64,000 bases of DNA from Escherichia coli (lineage in GTDB: Bacteria > Pseudomonadota > Gammaproteobacteria > Enterobacterales > Enterobacteriaceae), in NCBI RefSeq assembly GCF_003018255.1, contig NZ_CP027440.1; one strand, written 5' to 3'. The notes below the pieces were generated by a model. That model saw only the letters and a program-made list of their open reading frames with translations. It had not been told where the DNA came from and made no database searches. Each line of letters opens with the position of its first letter. Within the stretch, counting starts at the first letter, position 1. Of this stretch, positions 14,498 to 20,587 are shown piece by piece. The position numbers were made by a program, and so were the translations under genes.

Positions 14498-15658
14498 ATG
14501 ACAAATAACCCTCTGATTCCACAAAGCAAACTTCCACAACTTGGCACCACTATTTTCACCCGGATGAGCGCGCTGGCGCAGCAACACCAGGCCATTAACC
14601 TGTCGCAAGGCTTTCCTGATTTTGATGGTCCGCGCTATTTGCAGGAGCGGCTGGCGTACCATGTTGACCAGGGGGCAAACCAATACGCGCCTATGACTGG
14701 CGTACAGGCCTTGCGCGAGGCGATTGCTCAGAAAACGGAACGTCTGTATGGCTATCAACCGGATGCCGATAGCGATATCACCGTAACGGCAGGGGCGACG
14801 GAAGCGTTATATGCAGCGATTACCGCATTGGTGCGCAATGGTGATGAAGTGATCTGCTTTGATCCCAGCTATGACAGTTACGCGCCCGCCATCGCGCTTT
14901 CGGGGGGAATAGTGAAACGTATTGCACTGCAACCACCGCATTTTCGCGTGGACTGGCAGGAATTTGCCGCATTGTTAAGCGAGCGCACCCGACTGGTGAT
15001 CCTCAACACCCCGCATAACCCCAGTGCAACTGTCTGGCAGCAGGCTGATTTCGCCGCTTTGTGGCAGGCGATCGCCGGGCACGAGATTTTTGTCATTAGC
15101 GATGAAGTCTACGAGCACATCAATTTTTCACAACAGGGCCATGCCAGCGTGCTGGCGCATCCGCAATTGCGTGAGCGAGCGGTGGCGGTGTCATCGTTTG
15201 GCAAGACCTATCATATGACCGGCTGGAAAGTGGGTTATTGCGTTGCGCCTGCGCCCATCAGCGCCGAGATCCGCAAAGTGCATCAGTATCTGACCTTTTC
15301 GGTGAATACCCCGGCACAGTTGGCGCTTGCCGATATGCTACGTGCAGAACCTGAGCATTATCTTGCGTTACCGGACTTTTATCGCCAGAAACGCGATATT
15401 CTGGTGAATGCCTTAAGTGAGAGTCGGCTGGAGATTTTACCGTGCGAAGGTACATACTTTTTGCTGGTGGATTACAGCGCGGTTTCTTCGCTAGATGACG
15501 TTAAGTTTTGCCAGTGGCTGACGCGGGAGCACGGTGTAGCGGCGATCCCGCTGTCGGTATTTTGCGCCGATCCCTTCCCCCATAAACTGATTCGTCTCTG
15601 TTTTGCCAAGAAGGAATCGACGTTGCTGGCAGCAGCTGAACGCCTGCGCCAGCTGTAG
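14498..15658 (+). CDS. ybdL: PLP-dependent methionine aminotransferase
   Basis: 386-aa aminotransferase class I/II ORF; SFGKTYHMTGWKVGY PLP-lysine region. Confidence 0.92.
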   Translation: MTNNPLIPQSKLPQLGTTIFTRMSALAQQHQAINLSQGFPDFDGPRYLQERLAYHVDQGANQYAPMTGVQALREAIAQKTERLYGYQPDADSDITVTAGATEALYAAITALVRNGDEVICFDPSYDSYAPAIALSGGIVKRIALQPPHFRVDWQEFAALLSERTRLVILNTPHNPSATVWQQADFAALWQAIAGHEIFVISDEVYEHINFSQQGHASVLAHPQLRERAVAVSSFGKTYHMTGWKVGYCVAPAPISAEIRKVHQYLTFSVNTPAQLALADMLRAEPEHYLALPDFYRQKRDILVNALSESRLEILPCEGTYFLLVDYSAVSSLDDVKFCQWLTREHGVAAIPLSVFCADPFPHKLIRLCFAKKESTLLAAAERLRQL

Positions 15659-16288
15659 TTATTTGACAGTCCAGGCACGGGAATATTGACGGTCGGCAAA
15701 CAACTCTTGCAGGCCGTTAATTTGTTTCAGGCGCAGCACTTCGTCGCTGTCCATTCCCAGCTCTTTGCCAATTTTATTATCGTCCCATCCCAACTGGCTG
15801 AGTTCACGAACAATTTCGGACATGGCAGTGATTTGGTGGCGACCACGAGCGCGGTTATGACGAATAGTCGCGGCGATGCGTTGATTACGCGTACCTTCCA
15901 GACAGGTCACCGGCAAATAACCTTTTAAGCGTAATTTTAACGATGATGAGCCTTTACCAATTTCATGGCGGTGAAAACCATCCACGATTTCCAGGGCATT
16001 TTTATCCGTATGCGTGACCACAATGGGTTGGGTAAAACCATCTATTTCAATGGATTTTTTCAGCAGTTTTTTTTCGGGTGGTGCCACGTTGTTTGGGTTG
16101 TAATCATTAGGCATAAGTTGGCTGTTTTTAACCCACAGAACGCAATCCACTGGCTCTTCACGAAAGGGGCTAACCTGATGGATCGCCATGCGGATTTCAT
16201 TAATCGCTTTGATGCGATCATCTTCCGGCAAGCTGGCGAGAAATTGGGTTAAATCCTGCGTTAATCGTTGTTGCATAGTATCCCCCAT
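15659..16288 (-). CDS. ybdM: ParB/Srx-like nuclease-domain protein (IbrB-like)
   Basis: 209-aa ORF; overlaps ybdN stop by 28 nt; stop codon abuts ybdL stop head-to-head. Confidence 0.88.
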   Translation of the reverse strand: MGDTMQQRLTQDLTQFLASLPEDDRIKAINEIRMAIHQVSPFREEPVDCVLWVKNSQLMPNDYNPNNVAPPEKKLLKKSIEIDGFTQPIVVTHTDKNALEIVDGFHRHEIGKGSSSLKLRLKGYLPVTCLEGTRNQRIAATIRHNRARGRHQITAMSEIVRELSQLGWDDNKIGKELGMDSDEVLRLKQINGLQELFADRQYSRAWTVK

Positions 16289-17481
16289 TCCTGACGTTTT
16301 CCTTTTATCCGTTCGTTATAACGCTGATAGTTCTTCGCTTTCGTAGGACTAAATGATAATGCCCGGCACCAGTAATCGTTATTGAGTAAAACTTTGCATA
16401 TTCGCCGCCAGGAGGGGATATCTTTCGCGCCAATGTCCCCTTGCTGGGTTTGTGGAACTTCGATGCCTTTTTTCTGATACCAGTGCAAATAAATGGCGAT
16501 TTTATTGCGGTAATGCTCAGCTGTTTTTTCCGGCATGCTATTGAGCAGCAATAATGCATATTCTTGCCAGTCTAAATGTTCTGGCTTGAGGATTTTCCGA
16601 TGACCATAAAAATGATTATCATGTCCGGCGTAAATGCCGCCACTTTTTACCCCGCTGACTCGTGCGCACATAGCAGCCCAGCGATCCGGTTCGATAACGT
16701 GATAGAGCCATAATCCTTGCCGTTGCTCCGGGCCAAAAGGTTCGCAAATTCGCATATGACGCAGAGGAACGCCTGCCTGATACATTATATTATACAGTGG
16801 GTTACAGAGCTGTTGATGGTTAGCATACCAGGTCCAGATATCAGCCACTTTCCAGTCGTAGATGGGGTAAATGTACCAGCTATGACCGCCTGGTGCGGCG
16901 GTGGTCCAGGGCATATCATCGGCAAAACGTTGTTTATTTAAACTGGCGATGGCGACAAAACGGTTGTAGGACTCATCTGCACGGATGCCGATCATCATCG
17001 CCGCCGGACGTTTTTGTGAAAACCATTCAGCAAACTCACGCACAAATTGTTCGAAGGTCATGCCAGGCTGGTAAAAGGAGAAAAAGTCAGGATCGGTTAT
17101 CGCATCTTGCGGGGGCTGACGCACCCATTCGACATCAGGTTCCCAGCACTGCCATTCGGGTTGGTATTGAGAAAGGGAATTTTGCGTCGTAAGCGGGAGC
17201 GCAACCCAGTAAAACTCTTCGATGACATCGGCGTAAAACTCACGTAATGACTGAACATAGTTAATAGTGCATGAGAACTGCGCTTCCCAGTCGATAAACA
17301 AAACGCAGATTTTTTTGCCCATTTGTCGGGCAATTTCGGCTGTCAGATGCAGCATTAATCCGGAATCTTTACCACCCGAAAAAGAAACACAGATACGGGG
17401 TAGGGTATTAAGTGTCCAGGTAATACGTTCTTTTGCAGCTTCCAGAATATTCAGTGGAAGCGGGATTTTATAAATAGACAT
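16261..17481 (-). CDS. ybdN: PP-loop ATP pyrophosphatase / PAPS-reductase-family protein (IbrA-like)
   Basis: 406-aa ORF with PP-loop motif SFSGGKDS near the N-terminus. Confidence 0.88.
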   Translation of the reverse strand: MSIYKIPLPLNILEAAKERITWTLNTLPRICVSFSGGKDSGLMLHLTAEIARQMGKKICVLFIDWEAQFSCTINYVQSLREFYADVIEEFYWVALPLTTQNSLSQYQPEWQCWEPDVEWVRQPPQDAITDPDFFSFYQPGMTFEQFVREFAEWFSQKRPAAMMIGIRADESYNRFVAIASLNKQRFADDMPWTTAAPGGHSWYIYPIYDWKVADIWTWYANHQQLCNPLYNIMYQAGVPLRHMRICEPFGPEQRQGLWLYHVIEPDRWAAMCARVSGVKSGGIYAGHDNHFYGHRKILKPEHLDWQEYALLLLNSMPEKTAEHYRNKIAIYLHWYQKKGIEVPQTQQGDIGAKDIPSWRRICKVLLNNDYWCRALSFSPTKAKNYQRYNERIKGKRQEWGILCNND

Positions 17482-17627
17482 CTAAAAACGCTCTCTGAAC
17501 GTTACGGGGTGACTCGTGAGATGAATCCGCTAATTATAGGATAAACGAAGCAAGATAGAGCACATTATTTTATATTCACACAATGAATTAATTGATGCGT
17601 AATATATTATTTGTCAGTGGTAATGAA

Positions 17628-18530
17628 TCAGAAACTATCATTTAAACGATCTATGAATCGGGAGAAGACAAGGTTGTTCAACGAAGCCTTGTTATAGGAA
17701 ATATAAAGTTTAACCGCAGGAAGAGGTTGTTCTAGTTTTATTTCTTTTAACTTCAAAAAATCACGATGTAAATCGTACAGTTCGGTGGGCACAATGCCTA
17801 ATAAGTCAGTAACAGAAATGCTATTAATTATAGTCAACAAAGAAGAACTGCGAAATGAAACTTTACGGTTTATAAAACGTTCATCTATGTCCATTTGAAT
17901 TTCGTCAATCCCTGCTGATTTAGATATCAACAGGGTGAATTCTTCGGCGATAATTTGTTCATAGTTACTGGTATCAGTAATACGAGGATGTTTGTTGCTA
18001 CATATAAGGGAATTGCGAATAGTGTGTAACGGCATGCAGATGACAGAGCGACTAATTACTGGTTGCAGTGTAATTGCCAGGTCAGTTTTGCGTTGAACCA
18101 ACAGTTCTTCGGCATTTTCAGCTGAAAGCAGGATGTCATGGCATTCTATATCGATTGAAGTATCTTGTCTAAGACAGCGGATTAGCATGTTGTTATTAGT
18201 ACAAGAAATAAGCTGAGGACCGTAGATAATAAAATTTTTCTTTAGTTCAGACTTATTAACGATATTGATCGTTTGTTCAAGGCCTCTGAGATTTTTCTCA
18301 AGATGGTGATGCAGGTTTAACCCTGTTGTAGTCGGCGCGATACCTTTCCCTGAGCGAATGAATAACGGGTCATTAAATTGCGCACGTAAACGTTGTAATG
18401 ACTGACTAACAGCAGAGGGCGTTATATATAATGATTCTGCCGCTTTACTAATGCTGAGATGTTGATAAATACATTCAAATATGACCAGTAAATTGAGGTC
18501 AAATTTTTTTAGATCATAAAGATTAGCCAT
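17628..18530 (-). CDS. ybdO: LysR-family transcriptional regulator
   Basis: 300-aa product from MANLYDLKKFDLNLLVIFE... (HTH, GGAG SD 7 nt upstream); track ORF extends 12 codons upstream; gene is visibly AT-rich. Confidence 0.88.
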   Translation of the reverse strand: MANLYDLKKFDLNLLVIFECIYQHLSISKAAESLYITPSAVSQSLQRLRAQFNDPLFIRSGKGIAPTTTGLNLHHHLEKNLRGLEQTINIVNKSELKKNFIIYGPQLISCTNNNMLIRCLRQDTSIDIECHDILLSAENAEELLVQRKTDLAITLQPVISRSVICMPLHTIRNSLICSNKHPRITDTSNYEQIIAEEFTLLISKSAGIDEIQMDIDERFINRKVSFRSSSLLTIINSISVTDLLGIVPTELYDLHRDFLKLKEIKLEQPLPAVKLYISYNKASLNNLVFSRFIDRLNDSF

Positions 18531-18687
18531 AACATACTCCGTTGTATTGTCTCTTCCATAAATCATTCACTTGATCAATAATGTTTTTTGTATTTATATG
18601 TATTATGTTTTTCTGCTTAACTTTGGATTAAGATTTTCTAAAATAGCATAGCTGTCAGGTGGGTTACGAGCAATTCATGCGTTTTTA

Positions 18688-18723
18688 GGATGGTTGAAAA
18701 GCAAGGATATATTTCAACCATCC
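18688..18723. repeat. Perfect 12-bp inverted repeat with 12-nt spacer downstream of dsbG
   Basis: GGATGGTTGAAA-agcaaggatata-TTTCAACCATCC, 13 nt past the dsbG stop in the dsbG-ybdO spacer; no flanking U-run on either strand. Confidence 0.5.
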
Positions 18724-18735
18724 ATGAATTATCCT

Positions 18736-19482
18736 TTATTTATTCCCCATAATGATATTAAGCATTTTCTGATCGGGTAATCCGACGGCTTGTTGCAGGG
18801 TATTTTCCTTACTCATGTAATAGATAGCTGGTGTGACATTTGCCCCCAGATCGTCCATGAGTTTCTCGTTGTCGCTTAACACTTTCATTTGCTCTGTGCT
18901 TACGTTTGCAGGCACGCTTAGCTTAAGCTTGCCACCAGAGGCTTCATATTGTTGCCAGGTTTTTGCGGGATCTTTGGAGGCAAGAATTGCCGCTGCTGTC
19001 GCCGGGCTTTCTGGCTTGATAACCCCAACCAACAATGTTCTTAATTGCACTTTGCCAGAATCTACCCACGGACGAGCCTGCTGCCAGAATTGTTTACAAT
19101 ATGGGCAGAACGGATCGGCGAAGACGTAGACAATGACCGGCGCATCTTTTTTACCGTCGAGGAGCCAGTGGGATTGTTCCATCCGTTGCCACATTTCACG
19201 TCCGGCGGGTGCGTAAATTTCTTTTTCGATAAGCGTGTTACTCAGGTTTTCACCTTTTTCGTTGTACATGTAACCAGAGATAGCGTGCTTACCATCTGGA
19301 GTCAGGTAGATGGTGACGCCCATATCCTGATACTTACCGAGATAACCTTTCATTCCTCCAGGGGCATCGAACGTTTTGATGATTGTAATACCCTGTTTTT
19401 CAATCGCTTTTACTGGGGCAGGAAGTTCCTCTGCGAAGGCGATTGCAGGAAGCAGAGCCAGTAAAAGTATCTTTTTTAACAT
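18736..19482 (-). CDS. dsbG: Periplasmic disulfide isomerase/chaperone
   Basis: 248-aa product from [17 protein letters not shown] (signal peptide); CPYC thioredoxin motif present; track ORF extends 20 codons upstream. Confidence 0.93.
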
Positions 19483-19699
19483 TAATTTGTCCTTTTCAGT
19501 CAGTGCAAAAGTCGAGTAAAAGGCATAACCTATCACTGTCATAGGTAAGAGCTTAGATCAGGTGATTGCCCTTTGTTTATGAGGGTGTTGTAATCCATGT
19601 CGTTGTTGCATTTGTAAGGGCAACACCTCAGCCTGCAGGCAGGCGCTGAAGATACCAAAGGGTAGTTCAGATTACACGGTCACCTGGAAAGGGGGCCAT

Positions 19700-20417: not shown

Positions 20418-20481
20418 ATTTCCTTTGTCTTTCGCGCTACTAACTCCGGCGCGAAATACTTCGGAAATTCACCTAATTCTT

Positions 20482-20506
20482 CGGGTGCTGCGGCACCCGA
20501 TTTTCT
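20482..20506 (+). terminator. Intercistronic attenuator-like hairpin between ahpC and ahpF
   Basis: CGGGTGC-tgcg-GCACCCG stem-loop followed by ATTTTCTT; a second hairpin (TTCGCGC / GCGCGAA) lies ~45 nt upstream. Confidence 0.45.
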
Positions 20507-20587
20507 TCCCCGCACCATGATGCAAGCTGCATCCAGGTAGCCGCAGAGGCCGCTTGCATGATGATGTTTAAAGCCCAGGAGATAAAC

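Follow-up and report, generated by a model that had tools for sequence, protein, structure and literature searches.

ybdN and ybdM of Escherichia coli: a possible silent chromosomal copy of the IbrA/IbrB gene module of phages and plasmids

Introduction

Which function do ybdN and ybdM have, two conserved genes of Escherichia coli K-12 that are still without one? We analysed them in a stretch of 64,000 nucleotides (nt) of an E. coli chromosome (NCBI RefSeq assembly GCF_003018255.1, contig NZ_CP027440.1), called the window below. A preliminary description, made from the sequence alone, had presented them together with the upstream gene citR (formerly ybdO) as an AT-rich islet that encodes a ParB-like protein, a PP-loop enzyme and a LysR-type regulator. 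The gene positions given there agree with the open reading frames (ORFs) and with the RefSeq annotation of this E. coli chromosome.

We found no paper in the literature that gives a biochemical function for YbdN, YbdM, IbrA or IbrB. YbdM, described before as uncharacterised, was indeed called 'completely uncharacterized' as late as 2022 (PMC8764527). Earlier publications already cover the locus with its annotation, silencing and regulator. New in this study are the linkage of the pair across phyla, often together with a SNF2-type helicase, the low scores of YbdN against CysH and DndC models and the KorB- and sulfiredoxin-like fold of YbdM in combination with a helix-turn-helix (HTH). We tentatively propose that the IbrA/IbrB module of phages and plasmids has a copy fixed in the E. 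coli chromosome, ybdN-ybdM, which is normally silent, and that this module may carry out a DNA-directed, ATP-dependent modification.

Results and discussion

Distribution of the gene pair

The IbrA family is compact, with 219 representative clusters at E <= 1e-30 from 1.84 billion proteins. In 67 of 76 genome loci, which belong to Proteobacteria, Verrucomicrobiota, Bacteroidota, Firmicutes and one Heimdallarchaeote, an IbrB-like gene is found directly downstream of the IbrA-like gene, and at most junctions the genes overlap slightly or leave a short gap (roughly -15 to +28 nt). Of 78 viral contigs, 69 have an IbrB-like gene at most 3 kb from the IbrA-like gene; it follows the latter in 36 contigs and precedes it in 17. 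In bacteria of different phyla, in phages and on plasmids the two genes are closely linked.

Besides the pair itself, a minimal SNF2-type helicase of ~415 amino acids (aa) is encoded immediately upstream in 18 genome loci, often with a 4-nt (ATGA) overlap, and near the ibrA-like gene in 22 viral loci. It has the Pfam domains SNF2-rel_dom and Helicase_C and a C-terminus similar to ZorD, DpdE and DrmD of PADLOC. Streptococcus phage CHPC1148, Lactobacillus phage AQ113 and one metagenomic contig carry the same helicase. The three-gene form, a SNF2 helicase in an operon with ibrA- and ibrB-like genes, is present in loci L004, L005, L010 and L030 and in 36 further loci.

In 13 Bacteroidales loci and 23 viral contigs (e.g. 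L040 7569-7997 and L096 7570-7992), the position directly before the ibrA-like gene is taken by one of two ORF families of ~140 aa. Neither family has a match in Pfam, PHROG, NCBIfam or PADLOC, and the two are not related (hhalign probability 0.7%); these proteins may be alternative third subunits. Among 160 loci no recurrent partner was detected besides IbrB, SNF2 and the small ORFs. ClpB, MCP, MATE, histidine kinase, PFOR and aldo-keto reductase were rejected as partners, being housekeeping neighbours shared by related genomes. Moreover, 150 representatives showed no informative domain fusion, and the longer proteins look like read-through or assembly chimeras.

The neighbourhood in phages consists of early-region genes, namely DNA methyltransferases, a further ParB-like gene, helicases, an annealing protein and an integrase. 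One example is Arthrobacter phage Salgado, with the gene order ParB-like, PAPS (phosphoadenosine phosphosulfate) reductase, ParB-like, methyltransferase. Paralogues of ybdNM with 58% identity to YbdN are found on Klebsiella virulence plasmids, between fec (fecIRA) and iro (iroBCD). E. coli IncF plasmids carry them close to an autotransporter, and on the virulence plasmids of Shigella there are fragments only. The 'YbdM' paralogue c2484 of strain CFT073 was reported as pathogen-specific and as expressed in the urine of patients with urinary tract infection (PMC2978726). A homologue with 50% identity (locus L008) has no counterpart in E. coli genomes, and a scan of viral contigs for close relatives with YbdN alone gave one fragment.

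The kinship with IbrA/IbrB, suspected in the preliminary description, is supported by the RefSeq name of YbdM and by the plasmid paralogues, which have the same architecture. IbrA/IbrB of E. coli ECOR-9, described as co-activators of prophage eib genes, and their plasmid or island paralogues consist of a protein with PAPS_reduct and DUF3440 followed by one with ParB_N and HTH, with a gene overlap of 16 nt. The ybdN and ybdM genes likewise encode a PAPS_reduct and DUF3440 protein and, adjacent, co-oriented and overlapping, a ParB_N and HTH protein. They differ from IbrA/IbrB in being a core, syntenic chromosomal copy under the control of CitR and H-NS.

YbdN

YbdN combines an N-terminal PAPS-reductase-like PP-loop domain (Pfam PAPS_reduct, 6e-14, with a weak ATP_bind_3 PP-loop match) with a C-terminal DUF3440 (5e-23), and it matches phrog_2302 at 3e-76. 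The PP-loop motif SFSGGKDS that had been read from the translation is present at residues 33-40 and is of the ATP type, SGGKDS, which is the canonical form of ATP pyrophosphatases. Among 50 diverse family members G37, K38 and S40 of this loop are invariant, and S35, G36 and D39 are conserved in at least 90%. D64, E66 and D214 are invariant too, as is S171 in a GxRxDES motif; G165, R167 and E170 of this motif and D209 and W210 are conserved in at least 90%, and several tryptophans are conserved.

No close solved structure was found for YbdN or YbdM by sequence and profile searches of the PDB. For YbdN the single-sequence search against PDB chains gave weak matches (FAD synthase, 4.5e-4), which the profile raised to CysD at 2e-10 and FAD synthase at 3e-9, followed by PAPS/APS reductases and LarE, all of them distant. 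Judged from these profiles, the nearest solved relatives are adenylyl-transferring or AMP-handling enzymes.

These matches raise the question whether YbdN acts in sulfur metabolism, as a genuine PAPS reductase or sulfate-activation enzyme. The RefSeq product name, the Pfam PAPS_reduct domain and the 'viral cysH' assumption of virome studies all point there, and Cys-regulon genes are up by 2-2.8 log2 in a citR mutant in which ybdN is derepressed (PMC9068703). YbdN shares the catalytic-domain fold family with CysH, CysD and FAD synthase, of which CysD and FAD synthase are its best solved relatives. However, its scores against the CysH models are 35.4 bits for TIGR02057 (cut-off 254.2), 34.1 for NF002537 (cut-off 154) and 24.4 for TIGR00434 (cut-off 165.1), which is 4-7 fold under the cut-offs, and it falls more than tenfold under those of CysD and DndC. 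CysH has a catalytic cysteine in a C-terminal motif of the ECGLH type. No cysteine is invariant among 50 or 203 sequences of the YbdN family, which therefore has no invariant equivalent of it. With the additional DUF3440, the ATP-type PP-loop and an obligatory DNA-binding ParB/HTH partner, a role in sulfur metabolism is very improbable.

The cysteines of the family shift in their combinations. In the 203 sequences one is found at position 94 in 84%, at 372 in 86%, at 362 in 69% and at 246 in 44%; E. coli YbdN has C112, C246, C362 and C372 but A94, and enterobacterial YbdN likewise has alanine at 94 and cysteine at 112 and 246. The pattern may reflect a metal or Fe-S site with migrating ligands.

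PP-loop enzymes that act on tRNA are the commonest precedent for such a protein, so modification of a tRNA or rRNA base has to be considered as well. YbdN would then adenylate a base carbonyl like TilS, TtcA or ThiI, with YbdM as specificity or regulatory subunit, and a changed tRNA could shift the expression of prophage genes. The weak match of YbdN to the TilS N-terminal domain (1.2e-4) is limited to the PP-loop, though, and no RNA-binding domain (THUMP, PUA or TilS C-domain) was detected in Pfam and NCBIfam searches. As the partner has an HTH of the DNA type and SNF2 DNA translocases co-occur, we consider this explanation improbable.

YbdM

YbdM had been assigned a ParB/Srx (sulfiredoxin) fold, and this assignment holds. 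The Pfam ParB_N match is weak (2.8e-4), the PHROG ParB-like match is strong (4e-69), and Noc is found in the PDB at 1.8e-3 by sequence and at 1.7e-6 by profile. KorB is the top structural match and has the same architecture of a ParB N-domain and an HTH; the C-terminal third of YbdM resembles the HTH of sigma region 4, LuxR-type and KorB DNA-binding domains. The next-best matches in PHROG and PADLOC are ParB N-domains fused to DNA methyltransferases.

In 29 IbrB-family sequences the motifs N-x-YNPN, DG[F/Y]HR, RHNRARG-x-H and LGM-x-x-[D/E]E-x-x-R-x-x-Q are invariant or nearly so. D99, G100 and R103 (numbered, as all YbdM residues here, in the 205-aa form) are invariant and H102 is conserved in at least 90%. 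Identity to distant homologues of Firmicutes, Bacteroidota and other phyla is 41-51% for YbdM and about 30-35% for YbdN, and by these alignments the IbrB family is unusually conserved.

The ParB N-domain fold of YbdM comes with the GxxR phosphate-binding motif of the ParB/Srx superfamily. The G-x-H-R form of this motif is found in ATP-using members, GCHR in sulfiredoxin and DGQHR in DndB. By this analogy the G-x-H-R motif of YbdM resembles the ATP-using members more closely than the CTP clamps. A repair of the peroxiredoxin AhpC, encoded nearby, by YbdM in the manner of sulfiredoxin was suggested by fold and neighbourhood but rejected: the catalytic cysteine is missing (DGFHR as against GCHR), and the pairing with ahpCF is not seen beyond enterobacteria.

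The resemblance to KorB makes a purely regulatory complex the alternative to be weighed most carefully. YbdM would be a nucleotide-gated clamp or spreader like KorB or VirB which remodels H-NS-silenced DNA as transcriptional co-activator or anti-silencing factor, YbdN would be an accessory ATPase, and no covalent mark would be made. The architecture shared with KorB fits, as does the phenotype reported for IbrAB, and the locus itself lies within H-NS-silenced DNA (PMC4720273). However, YbdM differs from the CTP clamps ParB, Noc, KorB and VirB in both of their boxes (GERRxRA and QPR): in the alignment with Noc/ParB, DGFHR stands in place of GERR, so that the arginine pair is replaced, and NPN in place of QPR. 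KorB and ParB proteins of E. coli plasmids are 334-358 aa long. YbdM is short with about 205 aa, and its partner is an enzyme and not of the ParA/KorA type. A regulatory complex would also leave unexplained why an invariant PP-loop enzyme, often with a SNF2 helicase, accompanies the clamp across phyla and in lytic phages. We regard it as rather unlikely.

Comparison with modification and defence systems

The DNA phosphorothioation proteins DndB and DndC are similar to the pair in that a ParB/Srx-fold protein with a G-x-H-R type motif, DGQHR in DndB, goes together with DndC, a PAPS-reductase-like PP-loop ATP pyrophosphatase. DndB is a regulator of the ParB superfamily (PMC12839542). YbdN differs by DUF3440, which is specific to the IbrA family, and may differ by the shifting cysteines of its family where DndC has ligands for a 4Fe-4S cluster. 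None of the Dnd partners DndA/IscS, DndD and DndE and no restriction module is found at the locus, where the neighbours are ybdL, citR and dsbG.

In the Dpd system for 7-deazaguanine modification, DpdA needs the ParB-like ATPase DpdB, and SNF2-type helicases are part of the cluster (PMC12839542). The logic of a modifying enzyme, a ParB-like NTPase and a SNF2-type helicase is the same, and the helicase beside ibrA-like genes matches the DpdE models at 2e-19. The module differs in having no tRNA-guanine transglycosylase or preQ0 genes and a PP-loop enzyme as catalytic partner, and ybdNM of E. coli has no helicase. Because ybdNM reaches the family models of neither the Dnd nor the Dpd proteins, we classify ybdNM only as an IbrA/IbrB-type module.

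A role in modification or defence had been suggested in the preliminary description. The first half gains from the contexts: the ParB and HTH partner, the SNF2 helicase and the phage methyltransferases favour a DNA-directed role. The second half would be a host anti-phage defence, modification-based or abortive, on an old defence islet. In its favour, Zorya, Dpd and DISARM contain SNF2 helicases like that of the partner, there is a weak resemblance to segments of DndC and BrxP, and the setting is AT-rich and H-NS-silenced (PMC4720273). No defence-system model of PADLOC 2.0 was matched, though, only fragments of MTase_II (6.6e-4), DndC (1.5e-5, ~100 residues only) and BrxP (1.3e-4), and no restriction or effector partner is present at the locus. 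Moreover, the module is frequent on plasmids and in the genomes of phages, also of virulent phages, and the locus is near-universal (5317 of 5426 genomes) and syntenic in E. coli, unlike typical variable defence islands. We give host defence little credence; a function for the mobile element fits better because the family is mostly found on phages and plasmids.

Proposed mechanism

An intact PP-loop protein that is obligatorily paired with a ParB-HTH protein, is often joined by a SNF2 translocase and is at home in phages and plasmids argues for an ATP-dependent, DNA-directed activity. From these folds, motifs and gene linkages we infer a DNA target and a chemistry as follows. YbdM, with its ParB/sulfiredoxin-fold nucleotide-binding domain and HTH, would bind DNA and recruit or activate YbdN. 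The PP-loop of YbdN would split ATP and adenylylate a target on or beside the DNA, which would thereby be activated for substitution, and the outcome would be a covalent modification of DNA or of DNA ends. In the three-gene versions the SNF2-type translocase would move the complex along the DNA. In E. coli, H-NS, which silences the AT-rich citR region, and CitR hold the pair off, according to published experiments (a peak in ChIP-exo, chromatin immunoprecipitation with exonuclease digestion, and the derepression in the mutant).

Several points weigh against this proposal. The one phenotype known in the family is the activation of prophage eib genes reported for IbrAB, which fits a regulator equally well. 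DUF3440 is predicted as a helical domain (pLDDT, the predicted local distance difference test, 84) with neither a PDB match nor a recognisable DNA-binding fold. YbdN reaches no model for DndC, BrxP or any other protein of defence or modification (22.9 bits for the DndC model TIGR03183, cut-off 290.4), and YbdM has no DndB, DGQHR or DpdB match in NCBIfam at E <= 0.01 or in PADLOC at E <= 0.1. The E. coli locus has no SNF2 partner, and neither a modification of E. coli DNA nor a substrate has been attributed to ybdNM. Deletion or overexpression of ybdM has fitness effects of only 1-10% (PMC8764527). In addition, part of the ybdN derepression in that mutant could come from a resistance cassette by read-through, as the strain construction is unstated in PMC9068703. 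The absence of a seen phenotype is explained by the natural off-switch formed by CitR and H-NS.

A wider proposal, which we find doubtful, is that the IbrA/IbrB pair, with or without SNF2, is an unrecognised and very widespread DNA-modification machine of phages and plasmids, in which a nucleotide-using DNA binder of the ParB/Srx type and a PP-loop adenylyltransferase make an undescribed covalent mark on base or backbone. As part of the same joint claim, the mark would shield the element from restriction or relieve silencing, and enterobacteria would keep a domesticated copy under H-NS and CitR.

Regulation of the locus

CitR is by its domain matches a LysR-type regulator (NCBIfam NF047710, 453.7 bits, cut-off 400; Pfam HTH_1 and LysR_substrate, 1.8e-18 and 7.2e-11). 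Higashi et al. 2016 chose ybdO as an example of an H-NS-bound, horizontally transferred gene and showed its repression by H-NS, an exceptionally high substitution rate among E. coli strains and a transcription start site (TSS) 106-107 nt upstream of the ATG (PMC4720273). Rodionova et al. 2022 renamed YbdO to CitR and found a ChIP-exo peak upstream of citR-ybdNM; in the citR mutant ybdN rose by 5.5 log2 (45-fold) and ybdM by 2.5 log2 (PMC9068703). The ChIP of YbdO that had been proposed as an experiment is thus already published. In the K-12 citR mutant, cysDNC, cysJI, cysAWU and tcyP were up by 1.8-2.8 log2 (PMC9068703, Table 1), which could be unrelated or could hint at YbdN drawing on sulfur or adenylyl-sulfate pools. 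Elsewhere YbdO was described as an activator of K1 capsule genes and, in avian pathogenic E. coli, as a repressor of oxidative-stress genes (sources including PMC9141747), and the YbdM protein was 29-fold up in cells with a CTX-M-15 plasmid (PMC8764527).

Just downstream of the published TSS there is a CTTAA-N7-TTAAG box, a candidate CitR auto-operator by its sequence. Most Citrobacter and the two E. coli alleles have it in common, in an otherwise diverging spacer. Together with the ChIP-exo peak, a site upstream of citR had been predicted (PMC9068703), and its identity with this box is putative. A consensus scan for promoters and terminators gave sites no more numerous than in shuffled sequence, and the FNR site predicted by EcoCyc (cited in PMC9068703) was not evident in the ybdN spacer by eye inspection.

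For the citR segment (positions 17300-18800), identity to the window is at least 90% in 1773 genomes, 80-90% in 23 and about 78% in 3556. The citR gene and both flanking spacers form two discrete, deeply diverged E. coli allele classes. Compared with a K-12-like strain, the nucleotide identity is 80% in citR, 69% in the ybdN-citR spacer and 78% in the citR-dsbG spacer, as against 95-100% in the flanking genes; the ybdN-citR spacer is not alignable between genera. The rate of synonymous substitution (dS) is 1.95 in citR and 0.1-0.25 in its neighbours, and the ratio of nonsynonymous to synonymous rates (dN/dS) of citR is 0.034. The N-terminal ~110 residues of CitR, with the DNA-binding domain, are identical between the classes, and CitR of the outgroup species E. 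albertii and E. marmotae, equally distant from both, has about 76-79% identity to them. This is the diversification described by Higashi et al. (PMC4720273), and the split may be due to faster mutation under H-NS, to old balanced alleles or to import.

Gene overlap, base composition and age

The annotated ATG of ybdM at 16288 gives the 28-nt overlap with the ybdN stop noted in the preliminary description, but the start that is conserved in relatives gives 16 nt. The conserved start is probably Met5 (ATG 16274-16276), because the 205-aa orthologues of Citrobacter and Intestinirhabdus begin at its equivalent and because the overlaps in L008, L011 and L012, plasmid paralogues and a metagenomic homologue, are 16 nt. 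A GGGGGA stretch lies about 5 bases upstream of this ATG. Coupled expression, suggested before as co-translation, is plausible since an overlapping or nearly abutting stop and start is the rule for the pair across phyla.

The claim of an AT-rich islet stands for citR and its spacers but not for the pair. The GC content of citR is 0.366, that of the ybdN-citR spacer 0.342 and that of the citR-dsbG spacer 0.308, compared with 0.464 for ybdN, 0.467 for ybdM and a mean of 0.515 for the whole window. With the 57 long ORFs of the window as reference, the GC and codon-usage calculation that had been called for shows citR as the most AT-rich of them (GC z -3.7, codon-usage z -2.4), whereas ybdN and ybdM, with GC z about -1.4, are only mildly GC-poor and no more deviant than dsbG (-1.6). 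The 30-42% GC counted by hand before agrees with ybdO and with the first ~250 nt of ybdN, but not with ybdN overall.

Horizontal origin, which had been concluded from low GC, is accordingly supported only in part: it holds for citR (PMC4720273), but the GC deviation of ybdNM is mild. When one genome per species was scanned, the order ahpF-ahpC-dsbG-citR-ybdN-ybdM-ybdL-hcxA-cstA is common to Escherichia, Citrobacter and Pseudocitrobacter, and the core citR-ybdN-ybdM-ybdL is found in Superficieibacter as well, which makes at least four enterobacterial genera. Since the gene order is conserved across genera, any transfer must be ancient. In all syntenic genera citR is roughly 4-16 GC points (typically about 10) under ybdN, ybdM and the flanks, and ybdNM is a few GC points under the flanking genes. 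The YbdN orthologues of Salmonella and Citrobacter are 81-84% identical, those of Klebsiella and Enterobacter about 73-76%. When two E. coli lineages are compared, ybdM has a dN/dS of 0.034 and ybdN one of 0.053, values of 0.03-0.05 which indicate that both genes are maintained. With citR alone strongly deviant and the locus near-universal in E. coli, the sequences speak for ybdNM as old, maintained genes rather than a recently acquired island. The original observation is real and was partly overstated for the composition of ybdNM; its interpretation, a reasonable but unproven hypothesis, is strengthened by the contexts.

Features of the locus

The features of the locus are listed in Table 1. 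The three genes are flanked by ybdL on one side and dsbG-ahpCF on the other (RefSeq annotation), and the longest ORF of citR extends to 18566. The region 15400-18800 has a match in 5422 of 5426 complete E. coli genomes, with 100% identity to strain 104 (NZ_CP029164).

Table 1. Positions of genes, domains, motifs and regulatory regions in the window.
Feature	Position	Strand	Remarks
ybdM coding sequence as annotated	15659-16288	minus	209 aa; RefSeq 'IbrB-like domain-containing protein'
YbdM C-terminal helix-turn-helix domain	15701-15832	minus	
YbdM RHNRARG	15842-15862	minus	invariant in family
YbdM DGFHR	15968-15982	minus	ParB/Srx GxxR phosphate-binding motif, G-x-H-R variant; aligns with GERR of Noc/ParB
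YbdM box NDYNPN	16091-16108	minus	ParB box I equivalent; N57, N60, P61, N62 invariant across 29 sequences of the IbrB family
ybdN stop / ybdM start overlap	16261-16288	minus	28 nt annotated; 16 nt (16261-16276) with conserved start
ybdN coding sequence	16261-17481	minus	406 aa; ORF and RefSeq 'phosphoadenosine phosphosulfate reductase'
DUF3440 region of YbdN	16333-16773	minus	residues ~237-383, all-alpha
YbdN PP-loop motif SFSGGKDS	17362-17385	minus	from translation
citR-ybdN spacer	17482-17627	minus	GC 0.34; TATAAT at 17533-17538
citR (formerly ybdO) coding sequence	17628-18530	minus	300 aa; RefSeq 'DNA-binding transcriptional repressor CitR'
citR promoter region	18531-18735	minus	GC 0.31; published TSS converts to about 18636-18637
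Candidate CitR operator CTTAA-N7-TTAAG	18616-18632	minus	LysR T-N11-A type, footprint alignment

The genes ybdL and ybdM are convergent with their stop codons back to back (TAG 15656-15658 and TAA, complement, 15659-15661) and zero spacer, which leaves no space for terminators; PMC12288877 lists them as a convergent excludon. Directly after the dsbG stop codon, at 18688-18723, there is a perfect 12-nt inverted repeat, GGATGGTTGAAA / TTTCAACCATCC, with a 12-nt loop. It is kept in the K-12-like allele, is recognisable in Citrobacter and is presumably the dsbG terminator hairpin. A scan for inverted repeats over 15500-18800, with arms at most 40 nt apart, found this hairpin alone. The longest dsbG ORF (18736-19542, 268 aa) exceeds the annotated DsbG (248 aa, start at 19482) by 20 codons and was rejected as an artefact of the ORF finder. 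Furthermore, the ahpC-ahpF spacer (20418-20557) is ~74 nt shorter than in a K-12-like strain (about 170 vs 244 nt), probably due to a repetitive extragenic element that is present in one strain and absent in the other.

Significance

The pair can be approached by experiment through the invariant PP-loop, the motifs DGFHR and RHNRARG, the corrected start of ybdM, the optional SNF2 partner and the natural off-switch of CitR and H-NS. Its relatives are carried by Klebsiella virulence plasmids, E. coli IncF plasmids, pathogenicity islands and many gut and dairy phages. Virome studies score the DUF3440-bearing 'CysH' as a sulfur auxiliary metabolic gene (bioRxiv 10.1101/2021.01.05.425418). This reading of 'viral cysH' is doubtful because of the ParB-like pairing in most of the viral contigs (69 of the 78) and because the family falls short of what marks a CysH. 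If the wider proposal is true, thousands of DUF3440-carrying 'viral cysH' genes in gut viromes would be this enzyme. If the module modifies DNA, it would bring new chemistry into the epigenetic conflict between phages and their hosts, and the sulfur readings of 'viral cysH' in viromes would change.

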